Positions 261-38,020 of a DNA stretch of 50,051 bases are shown here, in pieces. Below the pieces are notes generated by a model, which searched no databases, was not told the DNA's origin, and was given only the letters and a program-made list of their open reading frames with translations. This DNA is from Chloroflexota bacterium. Lineage in GTDB: Bacteria; Chloroflexota; Dehalococcoidia; Lucifugimonadales; UBA3495. A program made the translations under genes and the position numbers. Numbering within the stretch: the first letter of the stretch is position 1; each line of letters starts with the position of its first letter. The DNA is taken from NCBI GenBank assembly GCA_022562475.1, contig JADFPD010000003.1:1-50051 (forward strand). Reading direction: 5' to 3'.

Positions 261-998
261 CTAACTAAAACCCTGGCCGTTCTCGTTCATGCTCACGTAA
301 CGTTGCCCGCTGCCGACGATCAGGTGGTCCAGGACTTCGATGCCCAATAGCTTGCCTGCCGCCACCAGGTCCTCGGTGATGGCGATGTCGTCATCGCTGG
401 GCGCGGGGTTCCCGGACGGGTGGTTGTGGACCACGATCAGCGACGGTGCGTTATTCCGGACCGCCGGCCTGAAGACCTCCGCCGGCCGCACCACCGAGCT
501 GTTCACGTTACCCACGTATACCTCATGGGTGCTGAGCACCTCGTTACGTGTGTTCAGCAGTATCACCCTCAGGTGTTCTTGGTCCAAAGAGCCCATCTCG
601 CCGGTGACCAGGTTGGCCGCATCCTGGGGCGTGCTGATGATGATCCGTTCCTCGGGCGCCAGGGAGATGAACCGGCGGCCCAACTCCAGTGCCGCCAGCA
701 ACTGACAGGCCTTGGCCTCGCTCAGTCCCCGTTCCCCGCAAAGTTCGGTGAATGCCGCCTTGCCGAGCCCCGCCAGACCGCCGAACCGCGTCAACAGCCG
801 GGACGATAGCGAGATCACGTTCTCGCCGGTGGAGCCCGTGCGCAACAAGATGGCGATCAGCTCAGTGTTGCTCAGATGCTTGGAGCCGTACTCCACCAGC
901 CTCTCCCTGGGTCTTTCACCGGTGGGCATCTCGCGGATGGTCGGTTGGCGTGGTCTGGCGCTCTCAGTTGCGGCTGAGGTCTTCATTGAAGTCGTCAT
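261..998 (-). CDS. radC: DNA repair protein RadC (JAB/MPN domain)
   Basis: ERPRERL..G...LSNTELIAILLRTG N-terminus and HNHPSG....SDDD JAMM motif; ATG 998 has GAGG upstream (ORF track start 1061 less likely). Confidence 0.93.
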   Translation of the reverse strand: MTTSMKTSAATESARPRQPTIREMPTGERPRERLVEYGSKHLSNTELIAILLRTGSTGENVISLSSRLLTRFGGLAGLGKAAFTELCGERGLSEAKACQLLAALELGRRFISLAPEERIIISTPQDAANLVTGEMGSLDQEHLRVILLNTRNEVLSTHEVYVGNVNSSVVRPAEVFRPAVRNNAPSLIVVHNHPSGNPAPSDDDIAITEDLVAAGKLLGIEVLDHLIVGSGQRYVSMNENGQGFS

Positions 999-1174
999 CG
1001 CGTCGTTTTCCTCTGGACCGGTTTCGGGGAAGAAGCTGCCAAGCCGGAACCAAGCGCCCAACGGGCGATGGTACCGGCCCCATAGGAGTAAACGAGTCCA
1101 TTGGAGCCCAGACGCCGGATTAATTCAAGAAGCAACTGTCAATTGGACACAGAGGCAAACAGCCCAGCGGAGAG

Positions 1175-2761
1175 TTAAACGGCGACCTCGACCGCATCCA
1201 CTGGATAGAGTTTCCGCCATGCATCGATCCCGCCCGCCAGCGCGGAGGTTTCCAGACCGTGTTCCCTGAGCTGCTGCGCCACACGGACGCTAGTTGCATC
1301 GTTGGGTCAACTACAGTAGGTGACCAACTCTTGTCCCGGCGGGCAGTCTTCAGCCCATTCGAGGGCGCCATCGGGCAGCACCCGGACCGAGCCGGGGATC
1401 CTGGTCCCGTCGTGGTTGTAGCTGGCCCTGGTCCGGACGTCCAAGACAAGAGGCGGGTCCGGTTGCAAAAGGCGGTCCGACAACTCCTGGGGCGTGAGCA
1501 TGGGCACCGCGCCCTTGTGGCTACCGAACAGGCCGGCCACCGTGCTCTCGCGCTCTTCCTCCAACGTCTCCCTGGCGGCTATCCGGCCATACCAGACACC
1601 AACGGGGGTCGCCGTGCCGCCGTGAATGGCCACCGACGCCATGACCACCACTCCCACGACGGCCAATAACAGTTCAGAGCCGGGTATCCCCGCCTGCACC
1701 ACCAGCAGGGCCAACAATAAAGAGTTGAGACCCCTTGGGCCGAACCAGCTCACGAAGGCGTGGGCTTGCCAACTCATCCGCGCCCTGGCCAAGACCACTC
1801 CTAAGACCGCCGGGCGGATGGCGAAGATCACCAACGCCGCCAGGCCCAATGTTGGCACAACATCGACCGTTCCCAAGAGGCCGGATAGCACCGCTCCGAA
1901 CAGCACGAAAGCCAATAGCATGGCCATCTCGGAGGTGACTTCGCCGTATTCCAAGAAACAATCGCAGAGAGACTGGTTTAGGATCACCACCGCCAGGCCG
2001 GCGGCGAAGGCTCCCAGGAACCCGTCGCCACCCGCGGCCGTGGCCCCGGCATAAGCGGCCAACACCAGGCCCACACCGTAGAGGGACTGGTGCTCACGCC
2101 GGATGGTCATCTTCCCGTCCATCCAACTCATGACCCACGACCCCAACCCACCGATGGCGAACCCGATGGCCGGTCCCAACAGCAGCAGTTTGACCAGGAA
2201 GACACTCCAGCCGCCGATGCCGCTTCCCTGGTCGGTGGCCACGGCGATCAGCACCAGGACCACCGGCAGCACCACCAGGTCGTTCATCCCGGCCTCGATC
2301 TTGAGCACCTGCCTCACGGACCTTGGGATGCGTTCGTCGCGCACGATATCCCTGAGGACCACGGGGTCGGTGGAGGCCAGAACGGCCCCGCCGATGAAGG
2401 CCAAGATCCAGCCGAAGTTCAGGAATAATCCAAAGGGCAGGGCGCCGACGGCGATTATCAGGCCGGTGCCCGGCCCCAATATCAGGGCCGGGACCAACCA
2501 CCTTTTGCCCAGTTCCGCCACCTGAAGTTTGACCGCGTCAAGGAACAGGACCAGGGCCAGGGTCAGGGTGGCCACGACCTCTAAGAACGGCGAATGAGGG
2601 CCGACATCCAGCACATCGAAGCCTCGGCCTCCCAGCAGAAATCCCAGACCGAGGAAGATCAACGGGAACGAGAGCGGCGACCGTTCGACCAAGCCGGACG
2701 TCAGGGCAGTCACCGTCAAGACGACGGCTATCACGCCGAAGATTAGAATGAAATCGGGCAA
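1175..2761 (-). CDS. CPA1-family cation/H+ antiporter fused to C-terminal rhodanese domain; probable selenoprotein (UGA at 1307-1309, Sec485)
   Basis: Multi-TM protein with ASTDPV, KIEAGMND and WFGPRGLNS CPA1 motifs; rhodanese LVLDVR..IPGS..VTYCS continues in frame past TGA as PNDATSVRVAQQLREHGLETSALAGGIDAWRKLYPVDAVEVAV to TAA at 1175-1177. Confidence 0.85.
1276..1290 (-). promoter_or_regulatory. Candidate bacterial SECIS hairpin (GCGUC-CGUGU-GGCGC)
   Basis: 5-bp stem (one G-U pair); loop begins 21 nt after the in-frame UGA with G-U at loop positions 2-3; same loop as at 37016-37030. Confidence 0.65.
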
Positions 2762-2806: not shown

Positions 2807-4444
2807 CTAGAACTTGGAGTACTCGCCTTCGTCCTTGGTGATGAACTCCAACACCACCGCCTTGCCGGCTTCGGTTTCGGCGATGCCCCGTTTGATGGCC
2901 GGAATGATGCCGGCGGGGGCGGTGATCTTCTCGGTATAGGCGCCCATGGCCTGGGCCACCTCGGAGAATTCGCCCGACAGGCCCTTGATGTTGTACTTCT
3001 CGATCGCCACCGGGAACCGGCTGTCGCTATAGATGGACATATAGGCGTTGTTGATGATGATGGTCAGCGTGGGTATGCCGCACCGGACCGCTGTCTCCAC
3101 GTCCATTCCCACCGTGCTGAAGGCCAGGTCGCCCATGACGTTGATGCACAGCTTCTCCGGGGCGGCCAGCTTGGCGCCCATGACCAGACCCAGGCTGTAG
3201 CCCAGTTGGGTAGACTTGCCCCAGCCGATGAAGCTGCGGGGCGCGCGGGCCTCCCAGAAGGGACTCATATACTCCCTGGCGCTGCCCGACTCGTGGGTGA
3301 TTATCGTGTTGTCCAAATCGACGGTGTGCATCAGGTCCCAGATCACCCGGTAGGGGTTCATGGGCACATCGTCGGAGGTCAACTTGGGCATCCACTGGGC
3401 CAGCCAGGCCTCTTTCACCGATTTGATGTCGTCTTGCAGGGCCTGGTCCTTGGCCCGGGCGCTGCCCGCTTGGCTCTTTAGCTCATCCAGCAGTTGCCGC
3501 AGCACCAGCTTTGCGTCGCCCAGCATGGCGTACTCCATTTTGAACTCCCGCCCGATGGCGTCCTCGTCGTTGGTCAGGTGAACAATAGTCTTGCCCTGGG
3601 GTATGGGCTGGGCGAAGTTGGTCTTGGTGAAGCTGCAGCCCACGCCGAAGACCAGGTCCGATCCCTTCAGGTATTTGTTGGCCATGGCGGTGGTGCTGGG
3701 ACCGCCGGAGCCAAGGGATAGAGGATGGGTCTCGGGGAAGCCGCTCTTGCCCGGCAGGGTGGTCATCACCGGGGCCTGCAGGAACTCGGCGATCTCGATC
3801 AATTCGGGGGTCGCTTCGGCGTACAGCACGCCCTGTCCGGCATGGATGATGGGGCGGTCGGCCGCCAGCAGGACCTTGACGGCGCGGCTGACGTCGGCGG
3901 GGTCGGCCTGCTGCAACACCACCCGGGGCGGCTCGTAGTTAAAGAGTTCTTCGGGCAACTCTGCGGTGGCCACGTCCGCCGGTATCTCCAGCAGGACCGG
4001 TCCCGGCCGCCCGGTGCGCAGCTTGGTGAAGGCCCGGCGCATCAGGTCGGGGATGCGCTCCACGATGTTCATCTCTTCCGACCACTTGGTGATGGTCTCG
4101 TAGCTGCGGGTGGGATAGAAGTTGGGATGGACGCCCCGCTTATCCCGGGGCATGCCGGCGGGCAGCAGCAGGATGGGGACGGACTCGGAAAAGGCCTGGG
4201 CCACGCCGCCGAAGCCGTTCTCCGCTCCTGGGCCGTTCTGCATCATGAATACGCCCATGCGCTTGCCGTTGGTGACTCTGGAGTAGCCGTCCACCATGTG
4301 GATGCCGGTGCATTCCTGCCGGAACACGATGGGGCGGATCCCGGCGATGGCCGCCGCTTCCAAGAGGGGCTGGTAGGGGACGCAGCCGATGAACTCCACG
4401 CCCTCAATACGCAGGATATTGGCGATGGCCGTGACTCCGTCCAT
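2807..4444 (-). CDS. Thiamine pyrophosphate-dependent enzyme (acetolactate synthase large subunit-like)
   Basis: RQE...HMVDGYSR, NGPG, GRPGPVLLEIPAD and GDLAF...INN TPP-binding motif. Confidence 0.9.
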   Translation of the reverse strand: MDGVTAIANILRIEGVEFIGCVPYQPLLEAAAIAGIRPIVFRQECTGIHMVDGYSRVTNGKRMGVFMMQNGPGAENGFGGVAQAFSESVPILLLPAGMPRDKRGVHPNFYPTRSYETITKWSEEMNIVERIPDLMRRAFTKLRTGRPGPVLLEIPADVATAELPEELFNYEPPRVVLQQADPADVSRAVKVLLAADRPIIHAGQGVLYAEATPELIEIAEFLQAPVMTTLPGKSGFPETHPLSLGSGGPSTTAMANKYLKGSDLVFGVGCSFTKTNFAQPIPQGKTIVHLTNDEDAIGREFKMEYAMLGDAKLVLRQLLDELKSQAGSARAKDQALQDDIKSVKEAWLAQWMPKLTSDDVPMNPYRVIWDLMHTVDLDNTIITHESGSAREYMSPFWEARAPRSFIGWGKSTQLGYSLGLVMGAKLAAPEKLCINVMGDLAFSTVGMDVETAVRCGIPTLTIIINNAYMSIYSDSRFPVAIEKYNIKGLSGEFSEVAQAMGAYTEKITAPAGIIPAIKRGIAETEAGKAVVLEFITKDEGEYSKF

Positions 4445-4580: not shown

Positions 4581-5024
4581 CTAGACCTCGGGCCGAGAGC
4601 TCCAGGGGACGAATCTCGCCGGAACGATCTTGATCACCGGGCTTTGGTCGAGGTCCATCCCCTGATACTGGGAATACTTTTCACGGAGCATGGCGATGGC
4701 CCGGGCCCATTCCTCACCCGACTCCAAGAGCCCGGCATCCCCCGACACCAGCAGATACTGGAGGCGTGACCAGTCCTCTTCATAGTGGTCCACGACCAAG
4801 GACACCTGTGGGTTGGCCAAGATGTTCCGCACCCGGCGCAGCTGCCTAAGGGGCGTGGACTTGGGTTTGGCGTCCAACACCGAGTAGATGGACTCGCCAT
4901 CGAAGACGTAGCAAACGGGAATCACGTGGGGTTGGCCCTTGGCGTCGGCGGTGGCCAGGTGGCCGGTGCGCGCGGAACGGAGAAACCGGTCTTGGGCGGG
5001 GGAGAGTTTGCCGGCAGGGTTCAT
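4581..5024 (-). CDS. PPOX-class (pyridoxamine 5'-phosphate oxidase-like) putative F420-dependent oxidoreductase, Rv0121-like
   Basis: GHLATAD..GQPHVIPVCY, DAKPKS..LRRVRNILANPQVSLVVDHYEEDWSRL. Confidence 0.85.
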   Translation of the reverse strand: MNPAGKLSPAQDRFLRSARTGHLATADAKGQPHVIPVCYVFDGESIYSVLDAKPKSTPLRQLRRVRNILANPQVSLVVDHYEEDWSRLQYLLVSGDAGLLESGEEWARAIAMLREKYSQYQGMDLDQSPVIKIVPARFVPWSSRPEV

Positions 5025-22100: not shown

Positions 22101-23276
22101 TCAGCCGCGAGGCAGACCCAGACCTCTTCCGGCGATGATGTTTCGCTGGATCTCCGAGGTCCCGGCGGCGATGGTGCCGGCGAAGGCGTTCATCCAGTGT
22201 TCCTGGACTCGGCCCTTCAGCGGCGCCCATTTTTCTTCCCGGCCCAGGGTGCCGTACATGCCCAGGATGTCCAAAGATGCCTCGGCCACCTTTTGCACCG
22301 TTTCGCTGCCGAAAACTTTGCTCATGGACGCTTCCTTGGTGGGAATGAGGTCCTGAGACTGCATGTAGGCCACGTTGTAGGCCATCAACCGCGCTACCTC
22401 ACAGTCGATGTACCGGTCGGCCAACAGGGCGCGCACCCAGGGAATCTCAATGATCGGCTGTCCGTTGCGCTTGGTGTCGGTAGCGAACTCCTTGGTGTCA
22501 TCCAGCATCCGGCGGGCGGAGGCGGAATAGTCGATGCCCGAGCGCTCAAAGTCCAGCAGGGTGACCGCCACGTACCAACCACGGTCTTCATCGCCCACCA
22601 CGTTGGCCCTGGGTACCCGGACATCGTCGAAAGTAACCTGGTTGAACTCGTGGCCACCGGCCATGTTGATGATGGGGCGGACCGACACTCCGGGACTCTT
22701 CATGTCCACCAGCACAAAGCTGATGCCGCGGTGCTTGGGGGCGTCTGGGTCGGTGCGGGTCAGCAGCATGATCCAGTCGGCGCGGTGGGCCATGGTGGTC
22801 CACACCTTGGCGCCGTTTATGACCAAATCGTCGCCGTCACGCACGGCCCGGGTGCTGAGGGAGGCCAGGTCCGAGCCTGATTCGGGCTCGCTGTAACCCT
22901 GGCACCACTGGATCTCGCCCTTGGCCACCGATGGCAGATGAGTCTTCCTCTGCTCTTCGGAGCCATGGATCATCAGTGTGGGGCCCAGCATGCGGACACC
23001 GAAGATGTCCCGTCCGGGGGCCCTCATATAGGAAAGCTCTTCGTTAAAGATAGCCGATTTCACCGGAGAGGCGGCTTGCCCGCCATATTCTTCCGGCCAG
23101 TGCATCGTGAGCCAGCCCTTCTCCGCCATCTTTTTTCGGATGACTCCGTTCAGGTCCCAGTCGTCGTCTTCGGGATAGCGGCCGGCGCCTTCCCAGGGGT
23201 CCGGGAGCTCGGTCTTCATGAATGTCCGAAGTTCTTTCCGAAAGTCTTCGTCCTCGGCCGTGAACTTAAATTCCAC
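22101..23276 (-). CDS. Acyl-CoA dehydrogenase family protein
   Basis: WCQGYSEPESGSDLASL, INGAKVWTT, EFNQVTFDDVRVP and TIAAGTSEIQRNII. Confidence 0.93.
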   Translation of the reverse strand: MEFKFTAEDEDFRKELRTFMKTELPDPWEGAGRYPEDDDWDLNGVIRKKMAEKGWLTMHWPEEYGGQAASPVKSAIFNEELSYMRAPGRDIFGVRMLGPTLMIHGSEEQRKTHLPSVAKGEIQWCQGYSEPESGSDLASLSTRAVRDGDDLVINGAKVWTTMAHRADWIMLLTRTDPDAPKHRGISFVLVDMKSPGVSVRPIINMAGGHEFNQVTFDDVRVPRANVVGDEDRGWYVAVTLLDFERSGIDYSASARRMLDDTKEFATDTKRNGQPIIEIPWVRALLADRYIDCEVARLMAYNVAYMQSQDLIPTKEASMSKVFGSETVQKVAEASLDILGMYGTLGREEKWAPLKGRVQEHWMNAFAGTIAAGTSEIQRNIIAGRGLGLPRG

Positions 23277-36289: not shown

Positions 36290-37858
36290 TCATTCCTGTC
36301 CGTAGATTCCGGTTGCGTTGTTAAAGGTGTACCAGCCGAACCAGTAGGCGATCTGGCTAGGCAGCCGGTCCAGCCTATGGGAGGGGTTGTTGACATTGAC
36401 CAGCGCATCCTCCTCCATTCGCCACTCCTCTCCCCCTTGGTCGGCTACGAACACCTCTGCCGCATCCCGGCCGCCGAGGCTGATCGTGGTGAACCGCTGG
36501 CCGTCCCTCTGGTATGCGCGCGAGCCGGCCCTGTCTCCGGGAGTGATCACAACCAAGGCCCTGCCGCCCAGGATGTCGTTCAAGACGGGCTGCTGATGTA
36601 AGGTGTCCACGGGGTATGCCTTGGCCTCACCGTTAACGATTAGCCCTAATATTTGCGACTTTTCAGGCAGCCGGCCGCTTTTGTCCCAAACCGGGAATGA
36701 GCTCTCAGGTTGCTGCCGCAGCCCGTAATAGATCGATTGGGGGTCCCATTCCGGAACGTAGAGACCGGCGGGATACAGTCCGGTGTCGGCGTCCAGAACA
36801 GTGGTGTCGGGATGCGTGGCGAGCCAGTCTCCCCAGGTGGTCAAAAGGACCGGCAGCACCTCCAGCTTGATCCCGCTATCCACCAAAGTCCCCACGACGG
36901 GCTCGCCGGTAAACTGACGCCACAACGTCTCGGTGGCCCGGTCGTACATCAACTTGTTTGAGCGGTAGAGCAGACCCGAGGTGCCGAACTCCAGGACTTC
37001 GCCGTTTATCTTGGTGGAATACACGATTCCGGAGCCGCAGAGGGTTCAATAAGCCAGGGCGAAAGGCACGCCCCCCACCACGTCATTGGCCATCTCGTGG
37101 GCGTTGAGGATGCGTAGCGGGTAGGCCCGGTGCTCCCCGTTGAAGGAAACACCGAAGACCCGGTCTTCGTCAAAGAGGTAACCGGCTTCCCGCGGGGTGA
37201 TCACCGGTGGGTTGATCAGATCGGGAATGCCGTCTCTGGGCACGCCGCCCCACACTATCTCCTCCACCCGTATGCGCGAGGCCACGCCGCTGTGTATGAA
37301 TTTCGACTGCTCAGGGTCAACCATGCGGTTGAACAGAAGGCCCTTGAAGCCGTGGTATCCCTGAGGTCCCTGGATCTCGGAATGTTTTCCAACCCACCTG
37401 ACCCACCAGTCCCAAAACTGGGCCGAGCCTTTGAGTTCGCCGGGTGCGGCTCCGCTGAGGTTGAACAACGCGCGAATGATCGTATTGCGGTTGTCCTCAC
37501 CCAATAGGCCCGAAAAGCGCAGGTAATCCACCAGCACCGGGATGTAGGACGGGTCGCCTCTGTCCACCATGGCCTGCACGCCGGAGTCGCCGTCTCCGCG
37601 CGCCAACTCCAAGAATGGGTTGAGCAGGGCTATTGGACTTTCGGGCGATTGGGCAGCCATCGACCCGGCGCGCGCCGCCGGTGGTGGGTCCGGTAACTCA
37701 GGAGAAGGCGAGACGGGCGGCGGCGCGGTATCGGCGGTGGATGGGGTAGATTCGGACGGAGTCGCCGCAGGCGCAATTTCCGGCGTTCCCGCAGCGCCAC
37801 AACCGGCCAAGGCGACAGAAAACAGGGCGATTATTGCCCACCGGCGCCACGCCTTCAA
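36290..37858 (-). CDS. DUF3179-domain lipoprotein, probable selenoprotein (UGA at 37046-37048, UxxC motif, Sec271)
   Basis: ORF-track pieces 37046..37891 and 36290..37024 are in the same frame and join as GGVPRDGIP...RAYPLRILNAHEMAND...ALAY-U-TLCGSGIVY...FGTSGLLYRSNKLMYDRATETLWRQ; lipobox LAG-C; TTG start after GGAGG. Confidence 0.88.
37016..37030 (-). promoter_or_regulatory. Candidate bacterial SECIS hairpin (GGAAU-CGUGU-AUUCC)
   Basis: Perfect 5-bp stem; loop begins 20 nt after the in-frame UGA; loop identical to that at 1276-1290. Confidence 0.7.
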
Positions 37859-38020
37859 TTCTGTTCCTCCATATCCTTTCAACCGTATCACCTACACCGA
37901 GATACGGCGCAGGGCGGAGGACGGATTTCCTGAACACGCGGCGGCGGGATGGCCGGCGGTTTTCGGGCTCCTTAGCGTGGTGGCAGTTGCCAATGAAGGG
38001 GCGTTAATGGTCGAAAAAGC

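Follow-up and report, generated by a model that had tools for sequence, protein, structure and literature searches.

Predicted selenocysteine in the rhodanese domain of an NhaP-type cation/proton antiporter of Chloroflexota

The first 50,051 nucleotides of contig JADFPD010000003.1 (assembly GCA_022562475.1, a Chloroflexota bacterium of the lineage UBA3495), referred to below as the window, carry on the minus strand a gene at 2761..1175 that very probably encodes a genuine fusion of a cation/proton antiporter (CPA) with a rhodanese domain, a single selenoprotein of 528 residues in which an in-frame UGA is read as selenocysteine (Sec). The reading frame of the kind usually annotated (an open reading frame, ORF) covers 2761..1307, starts with TTG and yields 484 amino acids with the terminus ...LVTYCS, directly followed by TGA at 1309..1307. 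With this TGA read as U, residue U485 is followed by 43 further residues (PNDATSVRVAQQLREHGLETSALAGGIDAWRKLYPVDAVEVAV) until a TAA at 1177..1175, giving 528 residues in total. An earlier reading of the window, made from its letters alone (the sequence-only reading), had proposed a hidden selenoprotein transporter at this place, and that core interpretation is supported here: comparative sequence evidence establishes the identity of the gene, the predicted recoding of its UGA and the presence of a selenocysteine insertion sequence (SECIS). The parts of the gene on which the assignment turns are the following.

1175..2761, minus strand: complete selenoprotein gene as predicted, 528 codons plus TAA, for an NhaP-type antiporter, a linker and a rhodanese domain with Sec485
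2759..2761, minus strand: TTG start codon; orthologues begin at the equal aligned position with M/V/L-PDF, and GAGG lies a few bases upstream
1211..1495, minus strand: rhodanese domain, residues 423-517, spanning the UGA (PF00581, NF041203 and alignment to 3iwh)
1313..1315, minus strand: codon TGT for Cys483, the Cys of the C-x-U motif, conserved across loci
1307..1309, minus strand: UGA, predicted Sec485, at the catalytic-Cys position in the rhodanese active-site loop (alignment of orthologues and of 3iwh)
1175..1177, minus strand: true stop TAA, from the read-through translation

The position of the TGA within the rhodanese active-site loop, as stated in the sequence-only reading, is confirmed by two comparisons. 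The Pfam family Rhodanese (PF00581) matches residues 423-517 with 41 bits (cut-off 22.2) in a match that crosses the TGA, and a phmmer alignment to 3iwh, a rhodanese of solved structure ('ycsCpndats' against 'yivCaggvrs'), places U485 on the catalytic Cys, with C483 two residues upstream. The translation to the TAA and the same Pfam match also agree with the earlier statement that 43 read-through residues complete the domain, the last third of which (a putative regulatory domain) would be lost if translation ended at the TGA.

Orthologous loci were drawn from two sources: 151 genomes of the same order, 25 of which contain an orthologue at E<=1e-30, and species-representative genomes, from which the best 80 of 268 relatives were retained. 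In 104 of the 109 loci the match across the site was usable, and these comprised 93 distinct loci. Codon 485 is TGA in 79 of the 93, TGC in 9, TGT in 2 and TGG in 3 (thus 11 Cys and 3 Trp forms), and in all 93 the frame continues past it into ...EATSxRxAxxL...GGxxAW..., so that the alternation of Cys and TGA ahead of a conserved segment, which the sequence-only reading had suggested looking for, is indeed present. In most loci an in-frame TGA occurs at the Cys-aligned codon only; orthologues span residues 1-52x of the query with one in-frame TGA, which supports 1175..2761 as the full gene. Codon 483 encodes Cys in 77 of the 79 TGA-form loci (the others have TGA and TAC, one each) and in 14/14 non-TGA loci, and the resulting motif is YCSU in this protein and YC[TSA]U in its orthologues. 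A protein search with residues 400-528 recovered dozens of database proteins of 484 aa that terminate exactly at YCS or YCT, several of them named 'cation:proton antiporter' by NCBI, and the predicted truncation by standard annotation is thereby borne out; full-length Cys homologues of 526-541 aa with YC[ST]CP[ND][DE]ATS, found in the same search, align across the site.

Beyond the UGA, L+13, G+25 and G+26 have an amino-acid entropy of 0 and a third-position entropy of 1.72-1.96 bits, and this coexistence of invariant residues with near-random third positions indicates that the 43 downstream codons are translated and under purifying selection. The opposite pattern is found over a short segment close to the UGA, where an RNA element is predicted.

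1276..1290, minus strand: SECIS core, 5-bp stem GCGUC/GGCGC with apical loop CGUGU (RNAalifold, pair counts, third-position entropy)
1264..1306, minus strand: predicted extended hairpin, in which lower stems enclose the SECIS core (from the ViennaRNA minimum-free-energy structure of 1309..1235, this sequence alone)

Applied to the 79 TGA-form sequences, RNAalifold returns one hairpin of 5 bp with a CGUGN loop and compensatory changes in 2 pairs. The family consensus is a GCGYC/GGCGC stem that begins 16 nt past the UGA and closes the CGUGN loop; in the window 1290-1286 pair with 1280-1276, and 1285-1281 form the loop. Within the loop C, G and G never vary among the TGA forms and U is conserved to at least 90%, and 99.0% of the 395 pair cells of these forms are standard pairs, compared with 20-60% when the partners are slid. 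The consensus structure retains the apical 5 bp only, the lower stems of the extended hairpin not being conserved in the family. Third-position entropy over codons +6 to +10 is 0.24, 0.10, 0.44, 0.00 and 0.29 bits in 78 TGA forms, as against 1.09-1.84 bits for the same codons in the 14 non-TGA (Cys and Trp) forms and mostly 1.1-2.0 bits for the other scanned codons of the TGA forms. Arg +8 is written CGT in 72 of the 78 TGA forms, while in the rest of these segments this codon accounts for 89 of 932 Arg codons. Such synonymous-site constraint, limited to the TGA forms, marks the hairpin as a bacterial SECIS. Bacterial SECIS elements usually lie a short distance after the UGA and carry G and U in the apical loop, and a stem starting at 16 nt with a G-U loop fits that geometry. 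Judged from these alignments, this very short element with its conserved nucleotides illustrates cleanly how an RNA structure can limit codon choice.

The source genome, although 78% complete, contains the machinery needed for Sec insertion. SelA (448 bits) and the winged-helix domain of SelB (77 bits) are present, as are a tRNA-Sec of 97 nt with anticodon TCA on contig C94 and SelD (375.6 bits; G000:C138:29432-30352, plus strand, locus L004). SelD itself has one in-frame TGA (SHCAG-U-AAKLS), followed by an 8-bp hairpin with G-U in its loop that begins about 21 nt downstream. With selA, selB, selC and selD all found, the objection that the genome might lack Sec machinery, raised in advance by the sequence-only reading, fails. 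The presence of SelA does not separate the codon types within the order, being detected in 135/151 genomes including those with Cys and Trp forms; the two TGA-form genomes without a SelA match are incomplete (G043, 68%; G086, 81%). TGA is otherwise an ordinary stop in this genome: of the 34 ORFs in the window that reach 250 aa, 11 end with it, and many orthologues of the fusion gene use it as their final stop beyond the rhodanese domain.

The window also holds a second selenoprotein gene at 36293-37891 (minus strand), a read-through ORF of 533 codons in which DUF3179 (PF11376) matches residues 219-527 with 249.5 bits and spans the TGA at 37046-37048, in the motif Y-U-T-L-C (UxxC). DUF3179 with UxxC/T is among the known selenoprotein families named in the main text of PMC13188914. 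A further candidate read-through at 22878..22880 (plus strand) has no Pfam family and was dismissed as a shadow ORF.

Several observations weigh against the identification of the gene as a selenoprotein fusion. Folded alone, the 68 nt from the UGA are unexceptional (minimum-free-energy z-score +0.64; 146/200 shuffles fold at least as well), a scan of 1100-1450 against Rfam with E up to 10 gave no known family, only a chance match to a long non-coding RNA at 3.1 bits, and the SECIS stem is mostly conserved with little covariation, both sides having changed in 3 cells only. The SECIS-like hairpin of the sequence-only reading consequently does not stand out as a single fold, and what held of that claim is the 5-bp stem-loop conserved in the 79 TGA orthologues. 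The best NCBIfam match of the rhodanese part, NF041203 rhodanese_LYCAU (residues 415-522, E 3.2e-20), reaches 72.1 bits and not the profile's cut-off of 115 bits, for which reason this part is treated as a relative of NF041203 and not as a member. The gene is patchy, occurring in 25/151 sampled genomes of the order, and the presence at position 485 of Trp in 3 loci and of Ser in 2 protein clusters speaks against a strictly catalytic or essential Sec.

Had the TGA arisen by private nonsense mutation or through an error in sequencing, or did it mark a pseudogene, the real product would be a truncated antiporter of 484 aa, as gene callers and NCBI annotate it; the lack of significance of the single-sequence hairpin would fit this as well. 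This explanation has a negligible probability in our estimate, given that TGA stands at the same codon across several classes and two phyla in 79/93 loci, that the downstream frame is under purifying selection, that the SECIS is conserved in TGA forms only, and that a truncated product would stop right at the catalytic residue with the rhodanese fold incomplete. The sequence-only reading had taken a non-Cys sense codon in close relatives as a sign of a private nonsense mutation; such codons do occur, but they are rare and derived, and the private mutation is not borne out. An alternative genetic code in which TGA is generally sense, with no Sec involved, would equally leave the frame open across the TGA, but it is scarcely credible alongside the regular use of TGA as a stop in the window and in orthologues, the restriction of in-frame TGA mostly to the Cys-aligned codon and the full Sec machinery. 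Orthologue conservation, the SECIS, the Sec machinery and the TGA stops together lead to the rejection of nonsense mutation, sequencing error and alternative code, in favor of a Sec-encoding gene.

Departures from the usual C-x-U loop are few and of different kinds. One locus (L019, G098:C11) has TGA at both 483 and 485 in Y-U-T-U-ADEATS, with the usual SECIS sequence downstream, and could be a double-Sec U-x-U variant, of which it is a single example. In another (L056) codon 483 is TAC (Tyr) with TGA retained at 485, and its close relative L052 has Cys483. Two of the Trp loci, all of which have TGG (L023 and L026, from G051 and G124), form one clade with the altered loop WHRESSS, in which the SECIS sequence is lost. 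The third, L024 (G018), retains the SECIS sequence; its match covers residues 1-426 only and includes a second TGA, and this locus may be decaying. Ser485 is found in the protein clusters P0002 and P0003 (528 aa, YCSS...), which share 90-91% identity with P0037 and P0010, two proteins truncated at the TGA; P0002 is also altered in the conserved GG..AW segment. Trp and Ser are single-step neighbours of TGA, and by sequence comparison Trp and Ser at 485 are a derived minority.

A quick maximum-likelihood tree, rooted at its midpoint and with the trait columns kept in, covers 87 full-length rows, all different (Sec in 73, Cys in 11, Trp in 3). Sec forms occur to either side of its root, and nested among them are 2-3 clades of Cys forms and 2 lineages of Trp forms. 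The tree needs at least 5 changes of state at codon 485, against a mean of 13.5 for shuffled states. Sec, the majority form in the family, is apparently also the older state among the sampled sequences, as read from a tree without an outgroup. The orthologous group extends over Dehalococcoidia/SAR202, Chloroflexia, Anaerolineae, Thermomicrobia and some Rubrobacter-type Actinomycetota; on this sequence sampling the fusion is found widely among Chloroflexota, mostly as the Sec form. Two loci from records titled Candidatus Hebobacterum abditum and ranked Armatimonadota (L064 and L077) lie inside a Dehalococcoidia clade next to L074, a placement that suggests gene transfer or a binning or taxonomy issue of the record. 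At about 40% identity, proteins P0139-P0148, P0164 and P0267 make up a distant branch with a DVELCDCF motif, and they likewise end in ...YCA or ...YCT. Their termini suggest that the Sec form may reach well beyond the group of 55-91% identity analysed here.

The membrane part of the protein has the following features.

1595..2713, minus strand: Na+/H+-exchanger (CPA1/NhaP-like) membrane domain, residues 17-389 (PF00999; 13 helices modelled)
2366..2371, minus strand: T131-D132, aligned to TD of 'GATDP' in PaNhaP (phmmer alignment to 4cza/4cz8)
2279..2284, minus strand: N160-D161, aligned to ND of 'ESIFND' in PaNhaP (phmmer alignment to 4cza/4cz8)
1958..1966, minus strand: C-x-C motif C266-D-C268, lying where helix 263-298 begins (helix bounds from the model)
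1550..1558, minus strand: E402-E403-R404, in the linker that joins the rhodanese domain to the last membrane helix (invariant columns)

Residues 17-389 match Pfam Na_H_Exchanger (PF00999) with 121.8 bits (cut-off 26.2). An AlphaFold2 model built from a 55-sequence alignment (predicted local distance difference test score, pLDDT, 84.5; predicted template-modelling score, pTM, 0.80) consists of 13 helices followed by an alpha/beta domain, and its top Foldseek match is PaNhaP 4cz9_A (E 1.3e-11, template-modelling score 0.75 on the target), next to which come SOS1, MjNhaP1, SLC9C1, KefC and NHE1. The alignment to PaNhaP pairs ASTDP with GATDP, EAGMND with ESIFND and FGPRG with EGPRG. S130, D132, P133, N160 and D161 are invariant in the 55 sequences (alignment A3), and so is the conserved Arg; from the PaNhaP and MjNhaP1 structures we take TD (in the unwound helix), ND and Arg to be ion-site motifs. 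By sequence and model the membrane part is a canonical-looking CPA1/NhaP exchanger. PaNhaP and MjNhaP1 (4cz8/4cz9/4cza and 4czb), its best sequence and structure matches, differ in that they are about 420 aa long, have neither a C-terminal rhodanese domain nor selenocysteine and share 16-19% identity with it; moreover, the Ser of 'ES' in PaNhaP corresponds to Ala157 here. No specificity for Na+ or K+ is assigned, because the NCBIfam equivalogs for K+/H+ and Na+/H+ antiporters all score under their cut-offs (e.g., 127.9 against 355).

The transporter part also contains the CDC motif NQSLCDCFLEY to which the sequence-only reading had drawn attention, with C266 at codon 1966..1964 and C268 at codon 1960..1958. 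Both Cys are invariant in the 55 sequences, while the middle residue varies. When homologues were surveyed for the motif, 117 of 150 listed representatives covered the region and were classified: C-x-C occurs in 21/23 fused and 12/60 unfused representatives, 34 fragments being uncertain, and the idea that it is a trait of the fusion only is ruled out by the 12 unfused carriers. Helix counting, a positive-inside distribution of Arg and Lys in the loops and the known topology of NhaP place the C terminus, the rhodanese domain and C266-x-C268 on what is probably the cytoplasmic side. The linker is conserved and acidic, with E402-E403-R404 invariant in alignment A3, and has a lower pLDDT of 64-69. 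A complex prediction of the membrane domain with the rhodanese domain of the Cys homologue P0022 (10-row alignment) gave a score of 0.00 and a mark of 0.32 and was not used either way.

The following mechanism is consistent with these features. The UGA at 1309..1307 would be recoded by SelB and tRNA-Sec, steered by the SECIS hairpin within the coding sequence, and selenocysteine would replace the catalytic Cys of the C-terminal cytoplasmic rhodanese domain in C483-S-U485. The membrane part, which keeps the NhaP ion-site motifs, most likely swaps Na+ or K+ for H+. The rhodanese domain would most likely be a sensor and regulator of this exchanger, by analogy, since the C-terminal domains of KefC (KTN) and of SOS1 and SLC9C1 (cyclic-nucleotide-binding) regulate theirs. 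In such an arrangement the C-x-U pair may cycle between selenol/thiol, selenylsulfide or persulfide states according to redox state or sulfane sulfur, and transport would be gated accordingly. A role of the domain in sensing redox state or sulfane sulfur and in gating is put forward tentatively, its chances being somewhat short of even; a more specific and more doubtful version is a selenium-based redox switch in which the states of C-x-U, possibly by way of the invariant C-x-C at the cytoplasmic mouth, toggle cation/proton antiport. If this is true, redox state, sulfane sulfur or the supply of selenium would bear on how Chloroflexota, marine SAR202-type lineages among them, maintain their ion balance and pH. 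KefC serves as the analogue for sensing of thiols and electrophiles.

Two observations count against gating: the active-site loop is acidic (P-x-[DE]-A-T-S), and clustering of ORFs around 80 loci found no widely shared neighbour gene that would hint at a pathway, the large neighbour clusters being shadow ORFs that overlap the fusion gene itself. Thiosulfate sulfurtransferases, by contrast, have a basic active-site loop that binds thiosulfate. The acidic loop, U-P-x-[DE]-A-T-S, in which position +3 is E or D in almost every sequence, would suit another role, in which C-x-U together with the acidic loop residue, and C-x-C, bind and hand over a thiophilic cation such as Cu+, Hg2+ or Cd2+ for export by the antiporter against H+. 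Both Cys-rich motifs are invariant, in keeping with such handling of soft metals, but the canonical TD/ND/R motifs of NhaP are kept, C-x-C is found in unfused homologues too, and no metal-resistance genes are conserved beside the gene in the 80 loci. We know of no CPA1 member that moves soft metals. On the other side, the main text of a 2026 review (PMC13188914) links the majority of predicted transporter selenoproteins to resistance against metals or metalloids and allows that Sec may be a metal ligand. On balance this role is considered unlikely.

Slightly less likely still is that the rhodanese domain works as a sulfur- or selenium-transferase, a catalytic partner that would form, for example, a persulfide or perselenide from a substrate delivered at the membrane. 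Sec is placed exactly at the catalytic position, and stand-alone CxU rhodanese selenoproteins together with a DedA-rhodanese fusion show that the module recurs with membrane proteins. Yet the CPA fold moves cations and its ion-site residues are intact here, the loop lacks the basic residues that bind thiosulfate, and in the Trp and Ser variants the domain persists although position 485 offers no nucleophile. Decoding of UGA as Sec competes with termination in bacteria, which raises a further alternative, namely that the UGA is mainly a selenium-dependent translational switch: with selenium the full-length, regulated exchanger would be made, and without it a truncated, deregulated exchanger of 484 aa. 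The point of truncation, cutting into the putative regulatory domain as described above, would agree with such a switch, but Sec forms have been replaced in 2-3 clades by Cys forms, which are unable to switch, and we regard this explanation as quite improbable. A regulatory rhodanese domain on a cation/proton exchanger thus stays the preferred, if tentative, functional reading.

Comparison with known systems shows which parts of the fusion have precedents. The rhodanese domain shares with NF041203 its fold, the Y-C-x-U active-site motif and Sec at the catalytic position; that profile, however, describes a stand-alone protein of about 126 aa, whereas here the domain is the C-terminal part of a 528-aa transporter. 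Rhodaneses of the NF041203 type are entered in tables of two reviews as the selenoprotein 'form 3, CxU'. DedA-fused rhodaneses were said by the sequence-only reading to carry a YCxCPNE-like loop, and the one example checked, P0115, agrees (YCSCPSE). P0115 resembles the present protein in joining a membrane protein to a C-terminal rhodanese domain whose best match is NF041203 (73.4 bits), and differs from it in its DedA/SNARE-associated membrane partner and in having Cys in place of Sec. KefC (with a glutathione-gated KTN domain), SOS1 and SLC9C1, all among the structural matches, have the same plan of an exchanger core followed by a C-terminal cytoplasmic domain; they carry KTN/RCK or cyclic-nucleotide-binding domains where this protein has a rhodanese domain with C-x-U, and regulation, known for them, is here proposed by analogy. 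In an asparagine-synthase-like protein of 680 aa (P0054; PF00733, PF13522, PF13537) the final ~85 residues correspond to the linker and the first part of the rhodanese domain and end in ...YCS; either the gene call or the assembly is chimeric, or the same Sec module has another fusion partner here.

That selenoprotein transporters are unusual, as the sequence-only reading had it, is true in a relative sense only, other families being already catalogued: the main text of PMC13188914 names as predicted a cation P-type ATPase (UxxC), YeeE/YedE, a mercuric transport protein, Sao ABC components and SO_0444 Cu/Zn efflux, none of which belongs to the CPA/NhaP antiporters. In that main text 'NhaP', 'sodium', 'antiporter' and 'exchanger' do not occur as words, and the last two are absent from the main texts of PMC13188914, PMC9312934, PMC12013277, PMC2398784 and PMC5029168. 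No description of a Sec-containing Na+/H+ or cation:proton antiporter was found in these main texts or by full-text searches of the literature, a provisional result, as supplementary lists may hold one. The Sec-rhodanese module is thus already known, and its fusion to an NhaP-type exchanger is, provisionally, undescribed in the literature found; if the assignment is true, it would be the first selenoprotein of the CPA superfamily.

Selenocysteine on a cation/proton exchanger would point to control of ion homeostasis by redox state or by chalcogens. In public protein sets the whole orthologous group is cut at the catalytic residue, and a dedicated profile combined with a SECIS model would correct the truncated entries. 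A majority-Sec family with nested Cys, Trp and Ser replacements is also a useful case for studies of Sec/Cys exchange. Thermalbibacter longus CFH 74404, which has a record as a named strain and carries the TGA form at locus L114, makes the prediction open to experiment.

The genes that flank the fusion gene in the window are listed below.

261-1061, minus strand: RadC-like JAB-domain protein, downstream flank, shared as neighbour in 6/80 loci
2807-4444, minus strand: thiamine-pyrophosphate enzyme (acetolactate-synthase-like), upstream flank, shared as neighbour in 10/80 loci
4581-5024, minus strand: PNPOx-family protein, flanking gene

The RadC-like and thiamine-pyrophosphate-enzyme neighbours are common to close relatives only.

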